From a virus (Duplodnaviria > Caudoviricetes): a DNA stretch of 46,305 bases. Shown in pieces: positions 8,000-31,130 of the stretch; the first letter of the stretch is position 1; every line of letters begins with the position of its first letter. Under the pieces are notes generated by a model. It did no database searches. It saw only the letters and a program-made list of their open reading frames with translations, and was not told the DNA's origin. The position numbers and the translations under genes were made by a program. The stretch is taken from positions 1 through 46,305 of the IMG/VR virus record IMGVR_UViG_3300020045_000926; one strand, written 5' to 3'.

Positions 8000-8031
8000 G
8001 ATTATATCATCTTAATAAAGATGATATAATC
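8000..8031. terminator. Perfect 14-bp hairpin between the convergent arms (bidirectional terminator or operator)
   Basis: GATTATATCATCTT-AATA-AAGATGATATAATC. Confidence 0.6.
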
Positions 8032-12820: not shown

Positions 12821-13333
12821 TTATTGTTGTTCTAATACTTTTCTTTCAGTTTCTAAATCTCTATTTATAGCAGCTTCATTTGTATATTTATCTGGATATC
12901 TAGTTTTTAATTTGTTTATGTTTCTAATTTGTTCAGCCTCTAAAGTAGTACCTAGTACAGCACAAGCAATTGCTTGGTACCATTGCATATCTCCTAGTTC
13001 TTCTGCTAAATTAACTTTATCTAACTCTTGATTTAGTAATATAGAATTTACTACAGGTGTTAAGAACTCTTCTGCTTCAGTTAGCATACCTAATCCAGAG
13101 TGTAATAATCTAATCTTCTCAACTGATATATTTAACTCTAAAGATAATCTATTAGTATCTAAAGTACTAGATTCTCTTCCATAAAATACATATTTTTTAA
13201 GATTATCAATATCTTGGTTAATTACAGCTAATACTAGTTGTAAACCTTCAATTGAGTGTATTACTTTACCTAATCTTTCATTAGCTCCTTCAATACTCTC
13301 AGTTCTTATTGCGTCTTGTATATAGTTATTCAT
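12821..13333 (-). CDS. MazG-like nucleotide pyrophosphohydrolase
   Basis: G..TEAEE...EELGD..WY...NI.KL..RYP motif. Confidence 0.8.
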   Translation of the reverse strand: MNNYIQDAIRTESIEGANERLGKVIHSIEGLQLVLAVINQDIDNLKKYVFYGRESSTLDTNRLSLELNISVEKIRLLHSGLGMLTEAEEFLTPVVNSILLNQELDKVNLAEELGDMQWYQAIACAVLGTTLEAEQIRNINKLKTRYPDKYTNEAAINRDLETERKVLEQQ

Positions 13334-14331: not shown

Positions 14332-14417
14332 TTTAATTTCTTAGAATCAATAATTTATAAATTTTCTCTATTATAAATATATGAATAAATCAATATATTT
14401 ATAATAGAAAGAATAAA

Positions 14418-14455
14418 GATAATATGATAGATAAATTATATTCTATCATATTATC
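14418..14455 (-). terminator. 14-bp hairpin closing the PolA-to-HD operon
   Basis: GATAATATGATAGA-N10-TCTATCATATTATC just past the HD stop; T-rich downstream on the minus strand. Confidence 0.55.
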
Positions 14456-14471
14456 AAATGAAATAAGAAGA

Positions 14472-14984
14472 TTATTTTTTAGGTCTTAAAGAGTTCTTAA
14501 GTTCACCACGTAATACTTCTTCTCGTTTTATAGAGTCCAAATATACTTTTTCCATATACCCAGTGTTACCTAATTTAATCTCATTCCTACTATAAGTAGC
14601 ACATTGTATAATATCTGCCAGTGTAACTATAATAGACTCTACTTCTTTATGTTCTATATAGCTAGAAATAAACTCTTGAATAAAACTAGGGAATTTAGAC
14701 TTTACTATCAGTCTTTCAGCTACTTTAAGAGCCTTAGCTACTGCAGGATAATCTTTCTTAATCTTATGGTTTACATCATCAATATAAGCCTCAGGTAAGT
14801 CGTGGCATAATGACATGTGTATTGCCTTATTTAAGTCAAATTCATATTCCTCAAATAACTTATATACTTCTAAGGCTACAAAGAAAGAATGAGCAGCTAC
14901 TGACTCATTCTTAACTCTTGGTATATTAGAGTATCTAACTATATAATCTAAACTATATAGTTCTTCCATATTTAATTTACTCAT
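14472..14984 (-). CDS. HD-domain 5'-deoxynucleotidase (YfbR/DatZ-like)
   Basis: R.S...R...ESVAAHS, HDLPE...DD and LAD motifs. Confidence 0.85.
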   Translation of the reverse strand: MSKLNMEELYSLDYIVRYSNIPRVKNESVAAHSFFVALEVYKLFEEYEFDLNKAIHMSLCHDLPEAYIDDVNHKIKKDYPAVAKALKVAERLIVKSKFPSFIQEFISSYIEHKEVESIIVTLADIIQCATYSRNEIKLGNTGYMEKVYLDSIKREEVLRGELKNSLRPKK

Positions 14985-15381
14985 AATCTTTTATCTCCTC
15001 TGGAAGTACTCCATCTAATAAATAATTCATTAGTTCTTTTAAATCTTTACATATAATACCGCTTTTACCTAACATAAGATTAGGCTTAGTGATTCCTTTT
15101 GTGTAATAAACTATTGGTATGTTTTTAGCATATGCATATCCACACTCCCATATAGTTCCCATATCTTTACCAGCTGTTGAGGCTATAACTAGTGAACTAC
15201 TATTTAAGTGTTTTATATTCTCACTAAATATATCATCCCAATTACACCCATCTTCTCCTAGGTTCATATGCCTAGGCATAAAAGAGGTACTATCCATAAG
15301 TTTAACACAATACTCAACATCCTCTAAAGAGTCTATTTGCTCAGGAGTAAACCATCCTCCTGCTACATATACTTTACCCAT
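14977..15381 (-). CDS. Nucleoside 2'-deoxyribosyltransferase family protein
   Basis: VYVAGGWF, D.GT.WE.GYA (catalytic Glu) and NLM motifs. Confidence 0.88.
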   Translation of the reverse strand: MGKVYVAGGWFTPEQIDSLEDVEYCVKLMDSTSFMPRHMNLGEDGCNWDDIFSENIKHLNSSSLVIASTAGKDMGTIWECGYAYAKNIPIVYYTKGITKPNLMLGKSGIICKDLKELMNYLLDGVLPEEIKDYE

Positions 15382-16249
15382 TTGTTTTCTCTCTTATAGT
15401 ATTTCTTATATTAGTATATACTTGACTACCTATAAATGACTCTCTAGTCTTACTATATACAAATTCAGTATTGGTTAGGTCTACTTCTTTAGAATCTAAA
15501 TACTCTTGGTTAATTGTTTTAGGTCTATAAATATTACTAGAATGAGAACCATTTATAGTATTACAATACCATAAATCTACTCCACCTATTTGTATTGTAC
15601 CTCTAATAAATGGATATACTTCACAAATAGATTCATACATCCTAAGAGCTATAATATTATCTGATTCTGGTTGTATTTGTTCATCTATTCTAGTTTTAAT
15701 AAACTGTAATATATCTTTAATATTTCCAGACACATAATAGAAACTAGATAAACTTCTAGGTAATATAGTTCTAGCATCTAGTATAGATATTACTCCACTA
15801 TCTATCATATCAGAATATAAGTTTTTAGCTAACTTAACTATAGTTTCATATCTATCATTGAAACACTCTACTTCTTTTATAGAAGGTTTAACAACACAAT
15901 CATCATTTCTCATATCCCTATCAGCTGTACATTGAGCACTAAGGCTTAATGTTCTATGTCTAATTAAATGAGTAACATCAATTAGGTCCATTCCACTTAT
16001 TCTAAATGTTAATCTAATAGTTTCAAAAGCTGTTGGAAGTAAAGTACCTTTAAATAAGTCCAATAGAGCTTTACTTCTTTCTTCATCAGTATAGTCCCCT
16101 GGTATATCTTCCCAAGTAGCTAGACAAAATTCTGGTATATATTGTTTTAGTTTATCTGTACTAGGGTAGTCTAATAACTCTACTTTAATATTACTAAGTT
16201 GTTCTTTAAACTCAGTAGTAGGTGCCTGATTAGTTTTAAGTAATTTCAT
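15374..16249 (-). CDS. Divergent ThyX-fold flavoprotein (motif Ser replaced by Cys); probably not a thymidylate synthase
   Basis: E.I.LTF.ISG, HLIRHRTLSLSAQCTAD, DARTILP and F...R motifs; RHR-X7-C instead of RHR-X7-S. Confidence 0.8.
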   Translation of the reverse strand: MKLLKTNQAPTTEFKEQLSNIKVELLDYPSTDKLKQYIPEFCLATWEDIPGDYTDEERSKALLDLFKGTLLPTAFETIRLTFRISGMDLIDVTHLIRHRTLSLSAQCTADRDMRNDDCVVKPSIKEVECFNDRYETIVKLAKNLYSDMIDSGVISILDARTILPRSLSSFYYVSGNIKDILQFIKTRIDEQIQPESDNIIALRMYESICEVYPFIRGTIQIGGVDLWYCNTINGSHSSNIYRPKTINQEYLDSKEVDLTNTEFVYSKTRESFIGSQVYTNIRNTIREKTNG

Positions 16250-16563
16250 TTATTAGCTCCTTTATACTTTATCATAAAATCATTTATATTAGTTAAGTCT
16301 TTATACATATCTTCTGTAAGCTTAGCATATCCTTGTATATCGTGCCAAGTATCTATATGGTCTGGTGTTGCACCTAATCTAACTAATTTCATTACTAAGT
16401 AATAAATAGGTAAGAACTCTAACTCAGTTGGTTCTCTTCCTGTTTTATCCCTATGTATATCTTTTAGATTCTCTATAATTCCTGCAAATCCCTTAGTACC
16501 TACTTCAAACCTACCATAAGTTTGACCTCTTTCTTCTAGTGTATTATCTATATTATTACTCAT
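16246..16563 (-). CDS. DUF6378-like protein (possible all-alpha NTP pyrophosphohydrolase)
   Basis: TL.ERG..YG.F ... K..R ... H.D.W.DI.GYA pattern. Confidence 0.7.
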   Translation of the reverse strand: MSNNIDNTLEERGQTYGRFEVGTKGFAGIIENLKDIHRDKTGREPTELEFLPIYYLVMKLVRLGATPDHIDTWHDIQGYAKLTEDMYKDLTNINDFMIKYKGANK

Positions 16564-17452
16564 TATCTTGTCTCCATAATTTTACTTTAATTTGATTGCT
16601 TTCATCCATAACTAATTGGTGCATATTAACTAATCTCATATTTTTAATAGCATCAATATCATCTCTACCTTTATTTCTATATTCTTGGGTTACTTTATCC
16701 CATAGAATCTTTCTATCAACTATTGAACCTAGCATTTTCTCAGCTGTCTTTTTACCTACACCTTTTAAACCTATTACATTATCTCCTGTATCACCAGTAA
16801 GTGTTTGTATATAATGATGTTGTATTGCCTCTTTCTCACTAACATCATAGAACTTCATTTTTATATTAAACTTAGTACTAGAGTAATAATTAAAGTGAGT
16901 ACCAGGTACTGAATATAATACATCTTTATCTACAGCACACATAATATATTTATCATACCATTGAGTTTTCTTAAACACTACAATATCATCAGCCTCCCAC
17001 TCTCTCCAAGAGAATGCTTTATCAGGATATCTAATACATAATAACTCTTTTAGTTCACTTAATCCTACTGGAGCCCTAGTACCATTATTTAGTCTATTAG
17101 CTTTATATTCAGGGTCTACTAATGTATACCTAAATGATTCTCTACCCTTAGTAAAGTGTAGTTCAAAGTCTTGGCATCCTGTATTATCCATAATAGTTTT
17201 AATAGTATCCATAGCATGCTTAAAAGCTTCTTCAATATCTATAGTCCATACTTCTTCAAACTTAACTTCTCCTACTCCAACATCTTCTTCTGACATTCTT
17301 TCGTGTACTACACAAGCAGCAAAAGCTATAGTATCAGCATCTATTAGTGCAATCTTATCATTTTTAGGTGGTAATACATCACCTCTTGAGTTTATTTGTA
17401 TATCTGAAACTTCTTCTTGAGTTCCAAAGTCTAATTCAAATTCTTTAGCCAT
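16556..17452 (-). CDS. 5'-3' exonuclease (T7 gp6/FEN-like)
   Basis: LIDAD, YKANR, EADD, DKD and GD..DN..G..GVG.KTA motifs. Confidence 0.9.
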   Translation of the reverse strand: MAKEFELDFGTQEEVSDIQINSRGDVLPPKNDKIALIDADTIAFAACVVHERMSEEDVGVGEVKFEEVWTIDIEEAFKHAMDTIKTIMDNTGCQDFELHFTKGRESFRYTLVDPEYKANRLNNGTRAPVGLSELKELLCIRYPDKAFSWREWEADDIVVFKKTQWYDKYIMCAVDKDVLYSVPGTHFNYYSSTKFNIKMKFYDVSEKEAIQHHYIQTLTGDTGDNVIGLKGVGKKTAEKMLGSIVDRKILWDKVTQEYRNKGRDDIDAIKNMRLVNMHQLVMDESNQIKVKLWRQDNE

Positions 17453-17461
17453 TTTATATCC

Positions 17462-19198
17462 TTATTCATCTACCGGCATTGGTATATCCTTAAATTTAAA
17501 AAGTTTAGACTTACTAATCTCAGTCCATCCCTTAACCATAGCTTTAGCAAGTCTTGACTGCCATAACTCTTTATCTTCTTTAAGAACTCTCAAGTATATA
17601 GCATCGTGAACAACATTAAAGATTAATTTAAGTGCCTCAGGATATTCTTTAATTAAGAAGTGAACTGCCAACTTAGTAGTTTCAGCACCAGAACCTTGAA
17701 CAGGCCCATTAATACCATCTGTACCTAATTTAGGTTTAACTTTCCTACCTAATGCTGTTTCATAAAAGAAACTAGGTTTACTATAGTTATTCCATACATA
17801 CTCGTGATATTTCTTAATACCAGGATATTTAGTGAAGTATTTATTTCTTAGTGCTGTAGACTCTTCTAAAGATACTTTAACACCATAACTTACGAATGCA
17901 TAGTTTTGATAGGTCTTAGCAGACATCCCAAATACATAACCAAAGTTAATTGACTTAGCTAGAGTTCTATCTGTCTTAGTAACAAACTTAGTACCTTTAT
18001 TAGATGAATCGTGAATAGTATCATAATCACTACCTAATAATCCATCAGGATGAAGCTCTTTACCAGTAGAAGATATGGCCATAGAAGTATGTAAATCTTC
18101 TCCCTCTTTTAACTGTCTATACATTTCAGGCTCATTAAATATTGCACAAGCTAGTCTTAATTCTAGTGTAGAATAATCTAAACCTACTACTGTTGTAGTA
18201 TCTGTATCAGCTTTAAATAAAGGTTGAAATCTTCTAGGTATTTGTTGTGCATTAAATCCATTAGGTATATCTCCACCACTAGAGGTAAATCTTCCAGTAG
18301 CTGCACCAGCAACATTAAACTTAGTATACATTTTATCATAATTAATTGATTCTAAATAAGACTTCTCTTTTATAGCTCTTTTAAGTTCTGTCAAGGCTGC
18401 TGCTTTACCTGCTAATGGTTTATCTGATAAAGAATAAATTACTAGAGCATCGTGGTCAGATTCTTCAACACCTAAGTATTCTCTAACTTGTTTATAACTA
18501 TTAGGATTAAATCCTACTGGGAACTCTAATCTTAATCTAGCAATATCTTTTATACATTTCTCTAATAGAATTTCTCTTTTAGGTAAATCTACTAATAGTC
18601 CATTTTGTTGATATTGTATAGCATATATTTGAGATAACATATCAACTTTATAAGCTAGATTATTCTCAATAACATCTTGTATCTTAGGGTCTGCCCACAT
18701 TAAACTAAGTGCATATACATCTGTTGCAGAATATTGTATTTGTGCTTGAGATAAATATGCTCCCTTTTTAAATCCAGCTTTTTGTAATGATTTTTTATCT
18801 AAACTTTTATAAAGATGCCCAAACCCTAGTTTATCTACAACTTTATCTAAGTTGAACTCTATAAAGTGGCAATAAGCAGTTTTAATGGCATAAAATAAAT
18901 CATCTACTTTTGCAGTAATGAAATTTAGGGTACCTAAGTCGTATGATGAATTATACCAAACAGTGTGAAAATCAGATAAGTAAGTTGTAACTTGGTTTAA
19001 GATATTATCATAATCTTTTTGAGAGTAACCTAATGGTGCAACATCAAAAATATAAATAGTATCATCGGTAGTAGGTTGGTAGAATTGTATTAATCTAGTA
19101 CCAACATATAATTGTTCTGTTTCAATATCGCAGAACGTAGGTTCAATAGTAGAGAGTTTTGGTAACTCTTCAATTTTAGTAATTATTTTAACTTTCAT
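17462..19198 (-). CDS. polA: Family A DNA polymerase with 3'-5' exonuclease domain (start re-called at 19198)
   Basis: DIET exo I, TGRFTS, DYSTLELR motif A, R..AKSINFG motif B, VHD motif C; AAGGAA RBS before the ATG at 19198. Confidence 0.93.
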   Translation of the reverse strand: MKVKIITKIEELPKLSTIEPTFCDIETEQLYVGTRLIQFYQPTTDDTIYIFDVAPLGYSQKDYDNILNQVTTYLSDFHTVWYNSSYDLGTLNFITAKVDDLFYAIKTAYCHFIEFNLDKVVDKLGFGHLYKSLDKKSLQKAGFKKGAYLSQAQIQYSATDVYALSLMWADPKIQDVIENNLAYKVDMLSQIYAIQYQQNGLLVDLPKREILLEKCIKDIARLRLEFPVGFNPNSYKQVREYLGVEESDHDALVIYSLSDKPLAGKAAALTELKRAIKEKSYLESINYDKMYTKFNVAGAATGRFTSSGGDIPNGFNAQQIPRRFQPLFKADTDTTTVVGLDYSTLELRLACAIFNEPEMYRQLKEGEDLHTSMAISSTGKELHPDGLLGSDYDTIHDSSNKGTKFVTKTDRTLAKSINFGYVFGMSAKTYQNYAFVSYGVKVSLEESTALRNKYFTKYPGIKKYHEYVWNNYSKPSFFYETALGRKVKPKLGTDGINGPVQGSGAETTKLAVHFLIKEYPEALKLIFNVVHDAIYLRVLKEDKELWQSRLAKAMVKGWTEISKSKLFKFKDIPMPVDE

Positions 19199-19242
19199 TT
19201 TATTCCTTGTTTTGTAGGCTATCAACTGCCTTAATATGTTAA

Positions 19243-20082: not shown

Positions 20083-20159
20083 TATACTTAATATAGATAT
20101 GGGCCGAGTCATATCTATATTAAGTATACAAAAGGTATAAGAAATATCTTATACCTTTT
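20083..20159. terminator. Two adjacent perfect hairpins (19-bp and 13-bp stems)
   Basis: 20083-20101/20110-20128 and 20130-20142/20147-20159, immediately after the 20163 stop. Confidence 0.65.
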
Positions 20160-20162
20160 AAA

Positions 20163-20609
20163 TTATGCAATTACTGAATAATCAGGTTCAGTTGGCAGTG
20201 CAGCAACTTGCGCTTTACCTTCAGCTGGTGTGATAACTTCATCCATAACATCTTTAGTGATAGCATCTTTAGAAGCTTTAATAGTTTTAAGGAAATCACT
20301 TTTGATTTTATATGCAGCTCTTGAATGTCTTGATAAAGTATTACCATCAACATCAACAATTTTTGAATCTTTCTCATTATAGAAATTTTCAACATTTGCA
20401 GGTAACCAAGCACCTGAAATAGAACATTTAATTTCTGTAACAGCACCATTTTCATTTGTTTTAGTAATTTCAGATAAATCTAAAACTGTTCCACCTTTTT
20501 TAGGAGTTAATAACTCCATAATATCAATAAATAGGTTTTTGCTTTCTGCAACTCCGTGTTTTACCAAAATTTCTTTTGCTAATTCTGCTAATTCTTTTTT
20601 ACTTGCCAT
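20163..20609 (-). CDS. Hypothetical early protein, paralog of 29080..29652
   Basis: AAGGAG RBS, own promoter and terminator; shares IL.K.G, PK, C....P and VMD.V.T..E.K motifs with the paralog. Confidence 0.75.
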   Translation of the reverse strand: MASKKELAELAKEILVKHGVAESKNLFIDIMELLTPKKGGTVLDLSEITKTNENGAVTEIKCSISGAWLPANVENFYNEKDSKIVDVDGNTLSRHSRAAYKIKSDFLKTIKASKDAITKDVMDEVITPAEGKAQVAALPTEPDYSVIA

Positions 20610-22230: not shown

Positions 22231-22242
22231 TTAATCTCCCTT

Positions 22243-22319
22243 AATTTTATTAATCAATATATGATTATTTATATATTGATTAATAAAATTATATCTATCT
22301 AATTAAAGATAGATATAAT
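22243..22319. terminator. Two overlapping perfect hairpins (20-bp and 13-bp stems)
   Basis: 22243-62/22271-90 and 22288-300/22307-19. Confidence 0.55.
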
Positions 22320-22336
22320 CAATATATGATGATATA

Positions 22337-22858
22337 TCATATATTTTTAATTGTTTCTTTAAGCTCAACTGAGTCTTTAATTAGTGTAGTAAGATATACT
22401 ACTTCATCAAATGACTTACTTTCTTCTAATGACACCCTTAGTAGTTTAGTTAGCTTTACTTGATACTTAGTTATAGAATCTACTACATCCTTTATAGCTA
22501 ATTCTCTGTCAGTTTCACAAGGTTCACTAGAACTATTCTGAGTAGTATCATCAACTGGTAAACACTCACAACTTGTAGGCTCTTCAACTGGTAAACACTC
22601 ATCACAACTTGTAGGTTCTTCTCCAACTAATAAATTCATATCAGAATCACAAGTTGGGAGTTCTACAGCATCTAATACTAAATTCATATCAGAATCACTA
22701 ACCTTGTCCTGGTAGTAACCCTCCTTAGTAAATGTATACTCCTCACCATTATATAGCCTTATAGTAATGATTGAGTATATTCTACTTTCATTAATCTCAA
22801 TTATCCTAAACTCTGTACCATCTCTATTAGTAACTACATCTCCAACTTTTAAATTCAT
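22337..22858 (-). CDS. Hypothetical protein with internal Cys/acidic repeats
   Basis: DSDMNL x2 and EEPTSC(D)ECLPV x2. Confidence 0.65.
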   Translation of the reverse strand: MNLKVGDVVTNRDGTEFRIIEINESRIYSIITIRLYNGEEYTFTKEGYYQDKVSDSDMNLVLDAVELPTCDSDMNLLVGEEPTSCDECLPVEEPTSCECLPVDDTTQNSSSEPCETDRELAIKDVVDSITKYQVKLTKLLRVSLEESKSFDEVVYLTTLIKDSVELKETIKNI

Positions 22859-23529
22859 TTCACACTTCCTATAAATAATTGTTTGTCTAATTCTGGTAAA
22901 GCTTCAAACATAGCTTTTGCTAATAGTTGAATCTCCCACAACGCTTTCTTATCTGTCCTTAAACTTAAGAAGTTTTGTAAACTTCTAGCATTTATTGTCA
23001 TAACTAAAGATGTCTTATATGCCTCAGGCATACAGTATTTAGCTTTATCATTAGGAGCACCCTGTCTTACAAGTTCTCCAGTTAGTACATTTTTTAGTCT
23101 TTGTAAAGCAAAAAGTGAGCTTATGTCAGTTTCTCTATCTCCTGTAAAGACAATATACTTTTTAGCTCTTACAGAATCAAAGGTACATAAAGAGCCCATA
23201 AAATAAGTAAAGTACTCATCTTTTGGTTGTTCCTGACTTAAAAAACTAGGCTCCTGTTTTGACTCTTGTAAAGTATATCTAGTACTTTTAACTGTATAAC
23301 TAGCTATTCTGTGTCTTGCAACTTCTTGTAGACAGGCTCTACTAATACCATCAATATCAAAGTTATAAACTAAGTGCTCAATAACACTCTCATGTTTAAG
23401 TTGATTAGATACATTATCTATTCTACTTAATCTTTTTTCATCTGTTGTATGTGGTGTATTTGAATAACACTTACATATAGCTATATCTGCAACACTCAGT
23501 GGTGTGCTACTTAATAATTTAACTTGCAT
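22855..23529 (-). CDS. thyX: Flavin-dependent thymidylate synthase (canonical); start re-called at 23529
   Basis: HESVIEH, RHRIASYTVKSTRY (RHR-X7-S), N.RSL.NF..LR....A.WEI; GGAGGA RBS. Confidence 0.92.
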   Translation of the reverse strand: MQVKLLSSTPLSVADIAICKCYSNTPHTTDEKRLSRIDNVSNQLKHESVIEHLVYNFDIDGISRACLQEVARHRIASYTVKSTRYTLQESKQEPSFLSQEQPKDEYFTYFMGSLCTFDSVRAKKYIVFTGDRETDISSLFALQRLKNVLTGELVRQGAPNDKAKYCMPEAYKTSLVMTINARSLQNFLSLRTDKKALWEIQLLAKAMFEALPELDKQLFIGSVK

Positions 23530-24927: not shown

Positions 24928-24957
24928 TTAAAAAAGAATTATAAGATTTTTAAAATC

Positions 24958-27270
24958 TTATAATTCCACGTCCTCTATGGAGTCATCAAGTGCCTGTTTA
25001 GCATCAAAGGGTATAAATCTTGAAGTAAACCCAATGTATCCATATTTACTAATGGCACCAGAGTCTGACCTATGAGTTGATGACTTCTTAAGGTGTGTTA
25101 ATAACTTCTTAATCTGTGGTGCATCTAGTGACTCACTCTCCATAGCCAAGTCATATAAACTAGTGATGTTCATATGTGAAGTTGCAGGAGTATTATAGAG
25201 TAAACATCTACCATCAGCCTGATTTATCTTAGCATCGAAGAGTTTTATAATGTTTGCGTTAGATACAAAGAACTCTTCCTGTAATACATTAACAAACTTA
25301 TCTATGTTAGCCTCTTCTGCAGCCTCAACTAATAGGTGTAGAGGGTCCATCGTCTGCCTCATAAACTCATAGTAGTCCTCATCTTTTTGTGAGTCATTAC
25401 TATTATATTCCCTTGGGTCTATCTCTTCAACTTGTGTAGCTAAGTAATGTGCAAAGTGTGGTAACTCTTCCTTCATTAGTGAAAACATCAAGGAGTCATT
25501 ATTATCTGAAACTTTAGCCATCTTATTAGGACACTTAATAAATACGAACCTTCTATCGTTCTTAGGCAAGTCAGTAATTACTTTAACATTTATATTAGTA
25601 TTTAATATAGGTGTTATGAAGTGCCTTAAGTTATCCTTACCTGAAACGTCTTTACCTTTATACGTAATACTAGCTGTGGGTGCACCTGTTAATTTCTTTA
25701 GTTCTGCAACTATTAGTGCAGCCTCTCTCTTTGAAAAACCCTCTCCTGCTTCATCTAAGTGTGCATAGTCTGTTGATGCCTTCCAAGCATTGAAGTTGTT
25801 CTGTAACTTATCTAAGTCAATATCCTGTATTCTCTCTAAGCCTGCAAAATATTTAAGGAGCATCGAAACAAATACACCCTTACCAGCCCCACCAACTCCT
25901 GCAAATACTAAGTATATAGGAGAGTACTCATAAGTTAGATGCTTATTCTTTATAAACTTTAACAACCAGTTTAATCTGTTCTTATTTGGTATTAAGTTGT
26001 TTAAGAATTTCATAATATTCTCTGGATATTTAGGGTTCGATACTAATATTGGGTCCCTAAGAATCATTGTTCCCATAGATGGTACGAAAGTATTAAAACA
26101 AGGCCTATAAGGTGCTTTGGACTCTATCAAATAACTGTTCTTAGTAGGGTCATTTATTATCTCAATATCTATCGCCTTTGCTATCATATCATTAACTGAT
26201 ATTTGACTCTTCTTTTTTGATATAAAAGAGTTCTTAGCATTCGATGTTGTTGAGTGAATATTAATATCTTTAGTAGTCCTATTAAATTCTAAGAATTTTG
26301 AGGAACTACTATCAAAGAAATACTCAACAGCACTAAGGAATTTATCCTTAACTATCAAACCTTTTTTGGCCCAGTCTTGGTCATACACCCAAGCCTTATT
26401 ACCATCTATTGTTGCCTTAGTTATCTGGTAATCACAATCGTTCTCAATCCTACTTGGTGGCATTGGACTATCCCACTGATTATTAACATAGTGCATAACA
26501 CTCTTAAATACTAGCTCATTTATAGATGGGTCAAGTGCCAACCTAGTTCTTATGGCTTGTAAATACTCTGTACCTTCTCCATCTGGTATATCATTTGGGT
26601 GCAGATAATTAGGTTTAAACTTCTTAGGAGTTAATAACTTAAATATATCTATATTATAAGGGTCGTTTGGTTGTACCTTCTCTAGCATATAACCTAGAGT
26701 AGACTCCTCATTAATGTTGAAGGCCTTAGGTGTATCATATATGATGTTTGAGTTCTGATATTTAAGTACTATGTTCTCAACATACAACTGCATAGCTATA
26801 GGCATATAAGAGAGTCCTTCGATACTAGATAGTGGCTCAGTTAATAGCGTCTTAGTTTTATTAGCTTTTGTAGCCAGATAAATTAGTGTATTACCAATCT
26901 GTAAGTCTAATATCCCTTTAACCTTCTTTGATGTTTTAAACATGCTATTAGTTGCCTCTAGTTCTGGTGACCATCTGTATAACATATGTCCTCCCTTCGA
27001 GTCTGATTTAGCAACATAAGTACATTCTGGGTCTATCATCAGAGCAGTATTAAAAGACTCATCAGTATCAAAGTCAAGTCCTATAAAGTCCTTAAGTGCT
27101 ATCGCAGCTAGCAGTGGACTATTCTCAGTATTACGATTACTAATAAATTCCATCCAACCGTTCTTAGGAAATATCTGCCCATACTTTTTACCATCAGTGC
27201 CTCTATACATCTCAGTACCACCTAATGGTACAGTGTGGAATATCTTAGTATAGTCTACATTATGTGGCAT
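24958..27270 (-). CDS. Primase-polymerase / SF3 helicase fusion
   Basis: N-terminal LDFD...GGH prim-pol motifs; C-terminal GVGGAGKG, LDE, NTN and DRRF. Confidence 0.85.
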   Translation of the reverse strand: MPHNVDYTKIFHTVPLGGTEMYRGTDGKKYGQIFPKNGWMEFISNRNTENSPLLAAIALKDFIGLDFDTDESFNTALMIDPECTYVAKSDSKGGHMLYRWSPELEATNSMFKTSKKVKGILDLQIGNTLIYLATKANKTKTLLTEPLSSIEGLSYMPIAMQLYVENIVLKYQNSNIIYDTPKAFNINEESTLGYMLEKVQPNDPYNIDIFKLLTPKKFKPNYLHPNDIPDGEGTEYLQAIRTRLALDPSINELVFKSVMHYVNNQWDSPMPPSRIENDCDYQITKATIDGNKAWVYDQDWAKKGLIVKDKFLSAVEYFFDSSSSKFLEFNRTTKDINIHSTTSNAKNSFISKKKSQISVNDMIAKAIDIEIINDPTKNSYLIESKAPYRPCFNTFVPSMGTMILRDPILVSNPKYPENIMKFLNNLIPNKNRLNWLLKFIKNKHLTYEYSPIYLVFAGVGGAGKGVFVSMLLKYFAGLERIQDIDLDKLQNNFNAWKASTDYAHLDEAGEGFSKREAALIVAELKKLTGAPTASITYKGKDVSGKDNLRHFITPILNTNINVKVITDLPKNDRRFVFIKCPNKMAKVSDNNDSLMFSLMKEELPHFAHYLATQVEEIDPREYNSNDSQKDEDYYEFMRQTMDPLHLLVEAAEEANIDKFVNVLQEEFFVSNANIIKLFDAKINQADGRCLLYNTPATSHMNITSLYDLAMESESLDAPQIKKLLTHLKKSSTHRSDSGAISKYGYIGFTSRFIPFDAKQALDDSIEDVEL

Positions 27271-29079: not shown

Positions 29080-29652
29080 TTATTTAGACTTTTTATCTTT
29101 CTTAGTATCTTTAGTTTCTACTGATTCTTTAGTTTCAATAACTTCCACAGTATCTTTAGTACTAAATATAGAGTCGAATATCTCTAGTGAATATGGTGAG
29201 CTTCTAAGTTCTTTAAGTGATGTTATCTCAAGGTTTATAGCTTCTATCGCTTCTTTCGCCTCTTCCACTGTTTTCACTCCATCCATCACCGCATTTTTCT
29301 CCAATAATACATCAGACTCTAAGTCCTTAATTTTTTTATCATAGTGAAGCCATAATTTAATACCTTTTTTAGACTCTTTCGAATATCCATAAGTAGTCTT
29401 AGTAGATTTACTAAACTCAGTCACTGGGAAATATGTGTCGAATCTTATACAATATACTGATGTTATATCATCAATAGAGTGTACACTAGAATCATATGCT
29501 ACAGTCCCAACTAATGGTAAGTTAGCCGATACTCTTTGAGGAGTTTTAGGAGCTGATAATCCCAATAATTCCATTGCTAGTGTTGAAGATAGCTCAATTC
29601 CATTTTTAGTAAGAATTGAAGTGATTTGTGATGTTAATGCTGTTTTTGTCAT
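29080..29652 (-). CDS. First early gene, hypothetical; paralog of 20163..20609
   Basis: Behind two tandem promoters; AAGG RBS; shared motifs. Confidence 0.75.
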   Translation of the reverse strand: MTKTALTSQITSILTKNGIELSSTLAMELLGLSAPKTPQRVSANLPLVGTVAYDSSVHSIDDITSVYCIRFDTYFPVTEFSKSTKTTYGYSKESKKGIKLWLHYDKKIKDLESDVLLEKNAVMDGVKTVEEAKEAIEAINLEITSLKELRSSPYSLEIFDSIFSTKDTVEVIETKESVETKDTKKDKKSK

Positions 29653-29728
29653 TGTTTTGCCTTTAATTAATTGGTATGTTAAATAAAACTTCTAAAGAGT
29701 TTTAAAATCTATCTTTTGTCTTTCTAAT

Positions 29729-29764
29729 GAATTATACAACTAGTTTTCTTAAAATTTAATTAAA
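29729..29764 (-). promoter_or_regulatory. Early promoter (repeated family)
   Basis: Minus strand TTTAATTAAATTTTAAGAAAACTAGTTGTATAATTC. Confidence 0.75.
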
Positions 29765-29829
29765 TTTTAGAAGTTATAAGATTTATTAGAATTTAAAAGA
29801 ACTTTATCGAACTAATTCGATATATGAGG

Positions 29830-29865
29830 AAATTATACCATACTAATTCTTAAAATTTAATTAAA
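29830..29865 (-). promoter_or_regulatory. Early promoter (repeated family), with extended -10 TG
   Basis: Minus strand TTTAATTAAATTTTAAGAATTAGTATGGTATAATTT. Confidence 0.75.
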
Positions 29866-30037
29866 TTAAAATTATTATGAATTAAATTAAATTTCTATAA
29901 TTTTCTTACTAATTAAGATGATTTTAAGAATTTTTATGATATACGCGTGCGCGCGTGTATATTAATGATAAATCTTTAAGAAATTTTTAAGAATGGAGTT
30001 TTGGGATTATTTGTAAGAATTTATAGATTCTGTTAGA

Positions 30038-30371
30038 ATTTATGTGGAATTTTTCGGACTTGTGTATTTATAAGAAGGTTTTAAGAAATATTGGGATATG
30101 TGTAAGATTCTTTCAGACTTTATTAAATTCTTTCGGACTTTTAAAGAACAATTTAGATAATTATAATTATTCTAAATATTCAAGATATTCTAAATATTCT
30201 ATATATTCTAAATATTCTTGATTCTACAAATTTTCATTCCTAGAATATATATGATATATTTTTTTTTATTGGAGAATATAGAATAATTAGAATATATAGA
30301 ATATATAGAATATATAGAATATATAGAATAATTATAATTATCTTATTTAGTTCGAAAAATTCCACATAAAT
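30038..30371. repeat. Nested inverted repeats around TATTCTA/TAGAATA micro-repeats
   Basis: 30038-60 vs 30349-71 (22/23); 30155-74 vs 30324-43 (20/20). Confidence 0.85.
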
Positions 30372-30376
30372 ATCAT

Positions 30377-30523
30377 AAATACTTTAAAGTCTTCTTAATT
30401 AGTGAAGAGCCCAAAGAACTACCACAAAATACTTTAAAGTCTTCTTAATTAGTGAATTTCAACATAATTAGTGAAGAGCCCAAAGAACTACCACAAAATA
30501 CTTTAAAGTCTTCTTAATTAGTG
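30377..30523. repeat. Three copies of a 28-bp direct repeat (within a 59-bp duplication)
   Basis: AAATACTTTAAAGTCTTCTTAATTAGTG at 30377, 30427 and 30496. Confidence 0.9.
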
Positions 30524-30537
30524 TGGCCTATTGGAAT

Positions 30538-30566
30538 TTTATAGTAGTTCTTCGGACTACTATAAA
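30538..30566. other. Hairpin with cTTCGg loop
   Basis: TTTATAGTAGT-TCTTCGG-ACTACTATAAA. Confidence 0.55.
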
Positions 30567-30702
30567 GTTTCTTAAAGTCTTCTTAGGTTACTTGGGTATA
30601 TTAGTTATCCTTTAGTGTTTAGTAAATTCCTATTAGTTCCTATTAGTTCTAGGGACCCTCCTAGTGTCAATGTTGCTTTCACCCTTCAACTCTGAATGGC
30701 TC

Positions 30703-30912
30703 CTCGGAATACCTGGAATTTTAAGTATACCTTTTAATTTAATTAAATTATAAAGTACCAAAGAACTTTATAGAAATACTCGGAATACCTGGAATTTTAA
30801 GTATACCTTTTAATTTAATTAAATTATAAAGTACCAAAGAACTTTATAGAAATCCCAGTAACCTATACGGAATTTTAAATATACCTTTGAATTTAATCAC
30901 ATTCTAAAGTAC
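30703..30912. repeat. Tandem duplication with 76-bp period plus a degenerate third copy
   Basis: 30703-30777 equals 30779-30853; partial copy at 30869-30912. Confidence 0.92.
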
Positions 30913-30968
30913 ACCACCTCAACAATCTAACAAACTACACTAATTACTCACTATGGACTGAAATTATA

Positions 30969-31058
30969 AATATTCCCATTATTCTTAATATTCCCATTAT
31001 TCTAAATATTCCCATTATTCTAAATATTCCCATTATTCTAAATATTCCCATTATTCTT
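30969..31058. repeat. 5 x 18-bp iteron-like tandem array
   Basis: AATATTCCCATTATTCT(T/A) x5, head to tail. Confidence 0.95.
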
Positions 31059-31070
31059 AAAATTACTACT

Positions 31071-31103
31071 TTCAACTTAGTTTAAGAAATCTTTAGATAA
31101 TAT
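31071..31103 (+). promoter_or_regulatory. Probable promoter of the packaging genes
   Basis: TTAA-N12-TAATAT, a degenerate member of the promoter family. Confidence 0.45.
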
Positions 31104-31130
31104 ATCAAATATTATAACAAAGGATATCGG

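Follow-up and report, generated by a model that had tools for sequence, protein, structure and literature searches.

The 46,305-nucleotide stretch of DNA analysed here, hereafter the window, is a phage contig with a GC content near 31% (IMG/VR record IMGVR_UViG_3300020045_000926), and it carries a six-gene cassette centred on a divergent ThyX-fold flavoenzyme that we call TXL. The cassette is real, conserved and phage-borne. It very probably leads to a modified base in the phage DNA, and its product is on balance expected to be a C5-modified deoxycytidine monophosphate (dCMP) of some kind; more tentatively, we propose that the modification could be a deoxyribose-derived trihydroxypentyl chain on cytosine. 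A preliminary description of this DNA had pictured a ThyX paralogue making a non-canonical deoxynucleoside monophosphate (dNMP) with conserved partners, a general model that is well supported by the co-occurrence and active-site changes described below. The C5-modified pyrimidine that it listed as an alternative is the best reading here, in the form of a modified cytosine.

All six open reading frames (ORFs) lie on the minus strand, and their coordinates, overlaps and families (assigned with Pfam and PHROGs) are as previously claimed. They encode a family A DNA polymerase, PolA (ORF 17462-19225, ATG at 19198; PF00476, E 2e-33); a 5'-3' exonuclease (16556-17452; PHROG 107, E 7e-46); a 105-aa helical DUF6378 protein, a candidate stand-in for a dNMP kinase (16246-16563); the 291-aa TXL, proposed to be a C5-modifying dNMP synthase (15374-16249; Pfam Thy1, E 5.6e-19); a 134-aa NDT-family enzyme (14977-15381; PF05014, E 3e-13; PDB 6evs, E 9e-7); and a 170-aa YfbR-like HD 5'-deoxynucleotidase (14472-14984; PF12917, E 1e-15). 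PolA and the exonuclease are separated by 9 nt, and the successive overlaps thereafter are 8, 4, 8 and 8 nt. The separate canonical ThyX that had been credited with dTMP supply is indeed present on the same strand (22855-23529): it scores 136.7 with TIGR02170, above the cut-off of 87.9, and TXL falls below at 44.7.

The gene neighbourhood was compared across 82 TXL loci, comprising the best 80 of 177 IMG/VR loci, Geobacillus phage GR1 and the window, with some near-duplicates among them. The IMG/VR loci were obtained with an alignment query, a single-sequence locus search having given nothing. As a control, 17 canonical-ThyX loci with flanks of up to 6 kb were used. An NDT was present in 76 of the 82, never more than 5.3 kb away, and in five of the six misses the contig breaks off no more than 900 bp away to one side. 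Among the controls, one locus (L100) itself carries TXL, NDT and HD, and no NDT was found in the 16 others. A nucleotidase, either HD (46 loci) or NT5C (27 loci), was present in 73/82, with both together in none. The same mutual exclusion is seen for DUF6378 (30 loci) and a P-loop dNMP kinase (14 loci), which never co-occur and often occupy the same spot directly upstream of TXL. In many loci that lack both, a fusion of a kinase with a mini ThyA-like domain is found; examples of such dTMP-kinase-like fusions are L039:16728-17636, L033:15598-16557 and L001:15924-16379. Read by eye, these mini domains show Cys, RSxD and an Asp at the Asn177 position, and in the GR1 clade the domain stands alone right after TXL. 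A BLAST comparison of the mini domain with T4 gp42 gave no match. It possibly performs a second cytosine-modifying step.

Further partners across the 82 loci include a dimeric dUTPase-like protein (46), a NAD-dependent epimerase (26), a dCMP deaminase (16) and a glycosyltransferase (6). As separate observations within L039-L081, an Fpg/Nei glycosylase was seen in 23 TXL loci and an NT5C-dimeric dUTPase-like fusion in 27. Two fusions of TXL itself were also seen, one with a GT2-like domain (P0147) and one with an HNH endonuclease domain (P0135). The six glycosyltransferase loci and the GT2-TXL fusion imply a hydroxyl on the base. As the polymerase varies between loci (PolA or DnaE), we take the conserved unit to be TXL, NDT, a nucleotidase and a kinase slot.

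TXL is a broad family, with 224 homologues and, at E < 1e-30, 70 clusters when grouped by 50% identity. Its sole full-length homologue among cultured phages is that of GR1, at 41% identity (tblastn, 50,697 phage records); distant TXL queries found no other full-length cultured member, and scanning 185,579 prokaryote genomes for a TXL pattern found none. Near the GR1 gene lie NDT, HD, glycosyltransferase, P-loop kinase, nitroreductase and dUTPase-like genes. The AF2 model of TXL has a pLDDT of 93.7, and its best Foldseek matches are all ThyX (TM about 0.55). Residues were numbered on Thermotoga maritima ThyX via a phmmer alignment and counted in 56 TXL members hand-picked from the 120 matches listed. 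Equivalents of the Arg78-His79-Arg80 (RHR) motif, Glu58, Arg147 and Arg174 are kept in 56/56. His53, which stacks on folate in ThyX (PMC11940539), is replaced in every member (Leu in 55, Val in 1). Ser88, Arg90 and Tyr91, which drive loss of the carbinolamine hydroxyl in ThyX (PMC8316439), are likewise changed: Ser88 to Cys (50) or Gly (6), Arg90 to Ala or Gly, and Tyr91 to Asp (56). Arg74 becomes Thr, Cys or Ser, Gln75 becomes His (56), Asn85 becomes Ser (55) and Glu86 becomes Ala (55), so that the canonical RHR-x7-S-x-RY catalytic motif is found in 0/56. The Cys proposed earlier as a signature of this ThyX does stand at the Ser88 position in most members; it is not invariant, given the six with Gly. 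Because the RHR motif, Arg147 and Arg174 are kept and the folate-binding and catalytic residues are changed, we expect TXL to bind FAD together with a pyrimidine dNMP, and not to bind folate in the usual manner.

Among 77 TXL-linked NDTs, Tyr, Glu and the nucleoside-type Asp77 are kept in all and Asn105 in 76, where the Asp and Asn are residues for the nucleoside 5'-hydroxyl (PMC12884076). The catalytic triad reads Tyr/Asn/Glu: its Asn is found in 77/77 TXL-linked NDTs and in 9/9 of those linked to the SP-15 gp130 family (described below) or to phage LIS04, and it is Asp in 5/5 other phage NDTs. The NDTs of Weissella PWc, Gut-P1, 3-521, Twort and Planchet served as controls from unrelated contexts. 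For reference, we take D72/D92/E98/N123 to be the numbering of the Lactobacillus leichmannii NDT. By E-value, the leading cultured matches of the window NDT are GR1 and then GXN1 and LIS04 (among seven matches), and the best cultured matches of its HD are GXN1, GR1 and YerA41 (eight matches). In a quick NDT tree GXN1 falls among GR1-like NDTs, and L036 groups with L092. Since HD or NT5C accompanies TXL in 73/82 loci and the NDT keeps the nucleoside-type Asp77/Asn105, the HD and NDT steps appear to form a chain, and we propose that the window NDT releases free 2-deoxyribose.

DUF6378 had been thought to remove the canonical nucleotide, a role that its exclusivity with the P-loop dNMP kinase argues against. 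As the two never co-occur, DUF6378 is a candidate for the missing kinase, a predicted dNMP-kinase stand-in. The Pfam assignment itself scores 26.9 against a cut-off of 27.1, and ESM Atlas concurs (0.96). A kinase of the T7 gp1.7 type found no support, as no sequence or fold similarity to it was seen, a fold comparison gave no match to a MazG-like fold, and the PHROG label 'phosphofructokinase' was disregarded.

Evidence on the target base comes from restriction-type words, counted as observed against a Markov expectation. GC-only sites are still cut when thymine carries a small change, and cytosine-modified DNAs resist most enzymes (PMC7653180). For GC-only 4-mers, with 17 near-duplicate loci dropped and only loci with at least 8 expected sites counted, the window has 34 sites of 35 expected; median ratios were 0.90-1.02 for the TXL groups, 0.49 for gp130 loci and 0.41 for controls. 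In SP-15 (L082, L083), GGCC, GCGC, CCGG and CGCG are nearly absent, with 6 of 110 expected sites in 95 kb. When gapped sites were added to the GC-only set, the window gave 139/144, GR1 0.99-1.18, and the TXL groups medians of 0.92 (26 loci), 0.92 (5) and 0.99 (33). Reference values were 1.01 for a 25-kb stretch of T4, 0.97 for a 43-kb stretch of Xp12 and 0.46-0.66 for SP-15, with medians of 0.72 for six other gp130 stretches and 0.54 for 14 of the 16 controls; the TXL-small group differed from the control at p = 0.001. GC-only sites are thus unavoided as in T4 and Xp12, unlike SP-15, which argues for C or G as the modified base. We favour C over G because of the pyrimidine chemistry, the Asp at the Asn177 position of the mini ThyA-like domain (for the meaning of N177D in ThyA-type enzymes see bioRxiv 10.1101/2025.06.16.659550) and the lack of TXL in phage CP220. 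How GC-only sites compare with mixed ones may itself offer a sequence-only predictor of the modified base.

Phages with modified thymine have NDT and HD of the same type beside another divergent ThyX. In SP-15 about half of thymine is replaced by 5-(4',5'-dihydroxypentyl)uracil, and there are two Thy1 genes, gp9 and gp130 (PMC5977210). We see that gp130 adjoins genes for a short-chain dehydrogenase/reductase (SDR; gp129) and an NDT (gp127), and that it has homologues in Carin-5, YerA41, GN1, GXN1, three Vibrio phages and phiXF1. An NDT accompanies all eight distinct sources of the family that were examined (SP-15, Carin-5, YerA41, GXN1, 1.031.O, Va2, phiXF1 and L092), in orders such as NDT-HD-gp130 in GXN1 and HD-gp130-NDT-ACP-MazG in 1.031.O; in YerA41 it is gp86 (L084:10380-10916), annotated as a mannosyltransferase, which is an NDT of the Carin-5 gp18 type. 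Walker and Mandel, to go by the title of their 1978 paper, reportedly found a ribose label in the SP-15 side chain. The C5 linkers of Carin-5 and YerA41 are T+88 and T+104, respectively (PMC12686479, PMC9023294, PMC13697223). Joining 2-deoxyribose to dU with loss of O gives a computed T+104.05, equal to the YerA41 spacer. The SDR was considered as the cause of the T+88 versus T+104 difference and rejected, as YerA41 also has a gp129 homologue. TXL was rejected as a gp130 orthologue: in hhalign the gp130 profile matched canonical ThyX at 94%, against 67% for near TXL and 64% for distant TXL. Two further divergent ThyX lineages were observed, LIS04 gp124 (L090:9505-10620), a third type found with an NDT in the gene order of SP-15, and a Gordonia DV-cluster phage gene (L099:14509-15606) found with SDR, MazG and methyltransferase genes; both are candidates for making other modified bases.

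Taken as a pathway, these elements would act before replication, with a modified cytosine made at the dNMP level and then built into phage DNA. We infer the dCMP substrate, the deoxyribose donor, the kinase role and the incorporation, as well as every enzymatic step. HD would convert a dNMP to its deoxynucleoside, which NDT would split into base and free 2-deoxyribose. N5 of the reduced TXL flavin would take up the deoxyribose aldehyde, just as ThyX is able to use formaldehyde directly, via an N5-carbinolamine (PMC8316439). C5 of dCMP would then attack the flavin-bound aldehyde, with Asp110 as the acid, and hydride transfer would leave a saturated chain, giving 5-(3,4,5-trihydroxypentyl)-dCMP. 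A P-loop kinase, or in the window possibly DUF6378 in its place, and then host kinases would raise this to the triphosphate. Levels of dCTP would be lowered by MazG or the dimeric dUTPase-like protein, and the phage polymerase, in the window likely PolA, would incorporate the modified dCTP; some relatives would also glycosylate the modified base. A wider and about equally tentative reading is that ThyX was rebuilt twice into a folate-free sugar alkylase, acting on dUMP in SP-15, YerA41 and Carin-5 and on dCMP as TXL, with DUF6378 as a new kinase.

Several points weigh against the proposed deoxyribose-derived cytosine. As TXL is no nearer to gp130 than canonical ThyX is, the sugar-donor link comes through the partner genes only, and a gp130/NDT origin of the pentyl linker is our own proposal. 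In the available text of PMC5977210 and PMC12686479, a 5-hydroxymethyl-dUMP route to that linker is assumed and NDT is unmentioned in this role, and the published linker masses, to which the computed T+104.05 is compared, are nominal. Arg174 is described as a uracil activator of ThyX (PMC8316439), and the triad Asn occurs also in the purine-specific enzymes DmtZ and TbPDT (PMC12884076). The NDT tree does not resolve a clade of TXL- and gp130-linked enzymes (supports 81-85, long branches). Removal of the canonical nucleotide could be all that NDT and HD do, for which DmtZ is a precedent. Host and GC content act as confounders in the site statistics, the loci are not independent, and C is not separated from G; moreover, GC-only sites are avoided in L010 (0.42), L029 (0.67) and L012 (0.73), and 4 of the 14 controls reach at least 0.81 for GC-only plus gapped sites. 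The scanned window ORFs include no recognised glycosyltransferase or SDR and, as the preliminary description had said, no recognised kinase. The GR1 genome came from ordinary Illumina reads, and the available text mentions no problem with its assembly (PMC10237291). Finally, L029 is a true miss, with TXL and a kinase and with NDT and HD absent in full flanks. In L029 (2283-4152) and L041, both without NDT/HD, methyltransferase-like, FAD-oxidoreductase-like and HAD phosphatase-like genes were noted by eye.

The rival that survives best, which we consider unlikely, has TXL place a hydroxyl, methyl or hydroxymethyl group on C5 of dCMP while HD, NDT, MazG and the dimeric dUTPase-like protein drain dCMP, dC and dCTP. 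The cytosine-type site statistics fit this equally, and GR1 has a nitroreductase-family gene directly upstream. ThyA homologues make 5-hydroxy-dCMP and carry flavin (bioRxiv 10.1101/2025.06.16.659550), and DmtZ is an NDT-family remover in Z phages (PMC12884076). The window also avoids GATC (5/119) and CATG (33/125), and 5-methylcytosine (5mC) fails to block some N6-adenine-type enzymes (PMC7653180). However, T4 avoids GATC too (0.35) despite its bulky glucosylated 5-hydroxymethylcytosine (hmC), so this avoidance is no sign of a small group. The lost folate His suits methyl transfer poorly, and the identical NDT/HD types found in thymine-modifying phages suit a base-independent role. That synthases whose target bases apparently differ share one NDT/HD type makes a base-independent supply role a better fit, in our view, than removal.

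Slightly less probable is that TXL alkylates dUMP with deoxyribose, so that thymine would be partly replaced by trihydroxypentyl-U (T+104). SP-15-type phages share the layout of NDT, HD, divergent ThyX and second canonical ThyX, Arg174 is kept, the T+104 mass matches exactly, and a dCMP deaminase and a dimeric dUTPase-like protein occur in 16/82 and 46/82 loci. Thymine replacement as in SP-15 was indeed our first idea, and was demoted when the site statistics went against it: in thymine-modified phages GC-only sites are avoided and GATC is tolerated, as in YerA41 and Carin-5, which show no GATC avoidance, and the window does the opposite. Nor is TXL a gp130 orthologue.

It is improbable that TXL is a diverged but ordinary dTMP synthase, with NDT and HD in salvage and the DNA unmodified. 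In its favour, no more than 18/82 TXL loci show a canonical ThyX motif, and other phages have NDTs beside nucleoside kinases. Against this, His53, Arg90 and Tyr91 are replaced in 56/56, the last two being needed for catalysis (PMC8316439). The 18 loci have both enzymes, NDT is linked to TXL in 76/82 loci as against 0/16 controls, and GC sites are unavoided. Nucleotide signals are acted on by proteins with HD, NDT and MazG folds, which would suit a cassette that counters nucleotide-depletion or signalling defences and leaves the DNA unchanged, but the position right behind the polymerase, the dNMP-kinase slot, the glycosyltransferase partners and the site statistics point to incorporation into DNA and make such a role very improbable. 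The earlier lead of a guanine substitute (dGMP to dIMP) is the least probable of all, for although a modified G would protect GC-only sites as well and the triad Asn is common to purine-specific NDTs (PMC12884076), ThyX chemistry targets the pyrimidine C5 (PMC8316439), the equivalents of the pyrimidine-activating Arg174 and phosphate-binding Arg147 are kept in 56/56, the whole record of Firehammervirus CP220 gives only a weak, partial 17.8-bit match to the TXL profile, and GR1 alone is full-length in the tblastn search.

Elsewhere in the window, a MazG-like NTP pyrophosphatase on the minus strand (12821-13333; PHROG 229, E 2e-36), missing from the preliminary description, is a candidate remover of the canonical dNTP. 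The hairpin said to close the cassette is real, with perfect 14-bp arms (14418-14431/14442-14455; minus strand, z = -4.8), but it is AT-rich, was not called as a terminator and resembles four other perfect hairpins elsewhere; it is possibly a terminator or a regulatory palindrome. Long AT-rich inverted repeats, mostly intergenic, were seen at 20083-20128, 22242-22291, 8000-8031, 24936-24966 and 14350-14455, and could be promoters, operators or terminators. No PurZ was matched with Pfam in the 44 ORFs scanned and no ThyA-type gene among the ORFs scanned, both as described before, and a search for tRNA genes found none. The remaining gene content includes a P22-like portal, capsid, primase, helicases, a class II ribonucleotide reductase-like gene, ligase and lysin. 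The nearest solved structures to the canonical ThyX are from Helicobacter pylori (PDB 3ah5/3n3y, E 2e-44), which suggests a host among the Campylobacterota. Two distant paralogues (20163-20609 and 29080-29652) both match PHROG 10459 weakly, and at a strand switch lies a long non-coding region (29650-31130) that contains palindromes and short tandem repeats and is possibly an origin or control region.

In the open-access literature we found no ThyX-fold cytosine modifier and no NDT-released deoxyribose tied to phage base side chains. Searches there on ThyX with NDT, dihydroxypentyl or trihydroxypentyl bases, YerA41 biosynthesis and DUF6378 gave no account of the TXL family or route, which is absent also from the available text of PMC7824862, PMC11385102 and PMC10237291, and nothing was found on D72N or on the aldehyde scope of ThyX. 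If the proposal is true, this broad family, which has a cultured member in GR1, a phage of a harmless laboratory host, would provide a new DNA base, 5-(3,4,5-trihydroxypentyl)cytosine, and a new flavoenzyme chemistry for C-C bonds. The origin of the SP-15 dihydroxypentyl chain, open since the 1970s, would be explained by NDT-released deoxyribose, and DUF6378 would gain a function as a new small nucleotide kinase.

Compared with known systems, the TXL cassette resembles those of SP-15, Carin-5 and YerA41, which also combine a divergent ThyX-fold protein, an NDT with a triad Asn and HD, with related NDT and HD sequences; the separate canonical ThyX of the window has its counterpart in SP-15 gp9. 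These phages differ in that gp130, at about 410 aa, is a separate lineage with a thymine target, and in their SDR and sugar-transferase clusters, their large PolA fused to a uracil-DNA glycosylase and their opposite site signature. With canonical ThyX (and PolB) TXL shares the fold, the RHR flavin motif, Arg147, Arg174, Glu58 and Thr55, but His53, Arg74, Asn85, Glu86, Ser88, Arg90 and Tyr91 are replaced and there is a C-terminal extension of about 70 aa. The Z-genome system of PurZ, DatZ, MazZ and DmtZ shares with the window its HD-family (PHROG 7076 match), MazG-like and NDT helpers beside PolA, and both NDTs have the triad Asn; whereas DmtZ has a phosphate pocket for dAMP, the window NDT has the nucleoside-type Asp and Asn, and there is no PurZ. 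In T4 (hmC), Xp12 (5mC) and RB69 and DLP3 (5-hydroxy-C), a thymidylate synthase paralogue performs a pre-replicative C5 modification, as we propose here, and these pathways share a kinase, a dNTP remover and an optional glycosyltransferase; the window's site statistics match the T4 and Xp12 stretches, a match that is confounded by host and would suit a modified G as well. Their synthase, however, has the ThyA fold (N177D), whereas TXL has the ThyX fold and is near-obligately accompanied by an NDT and a nucleotidase.

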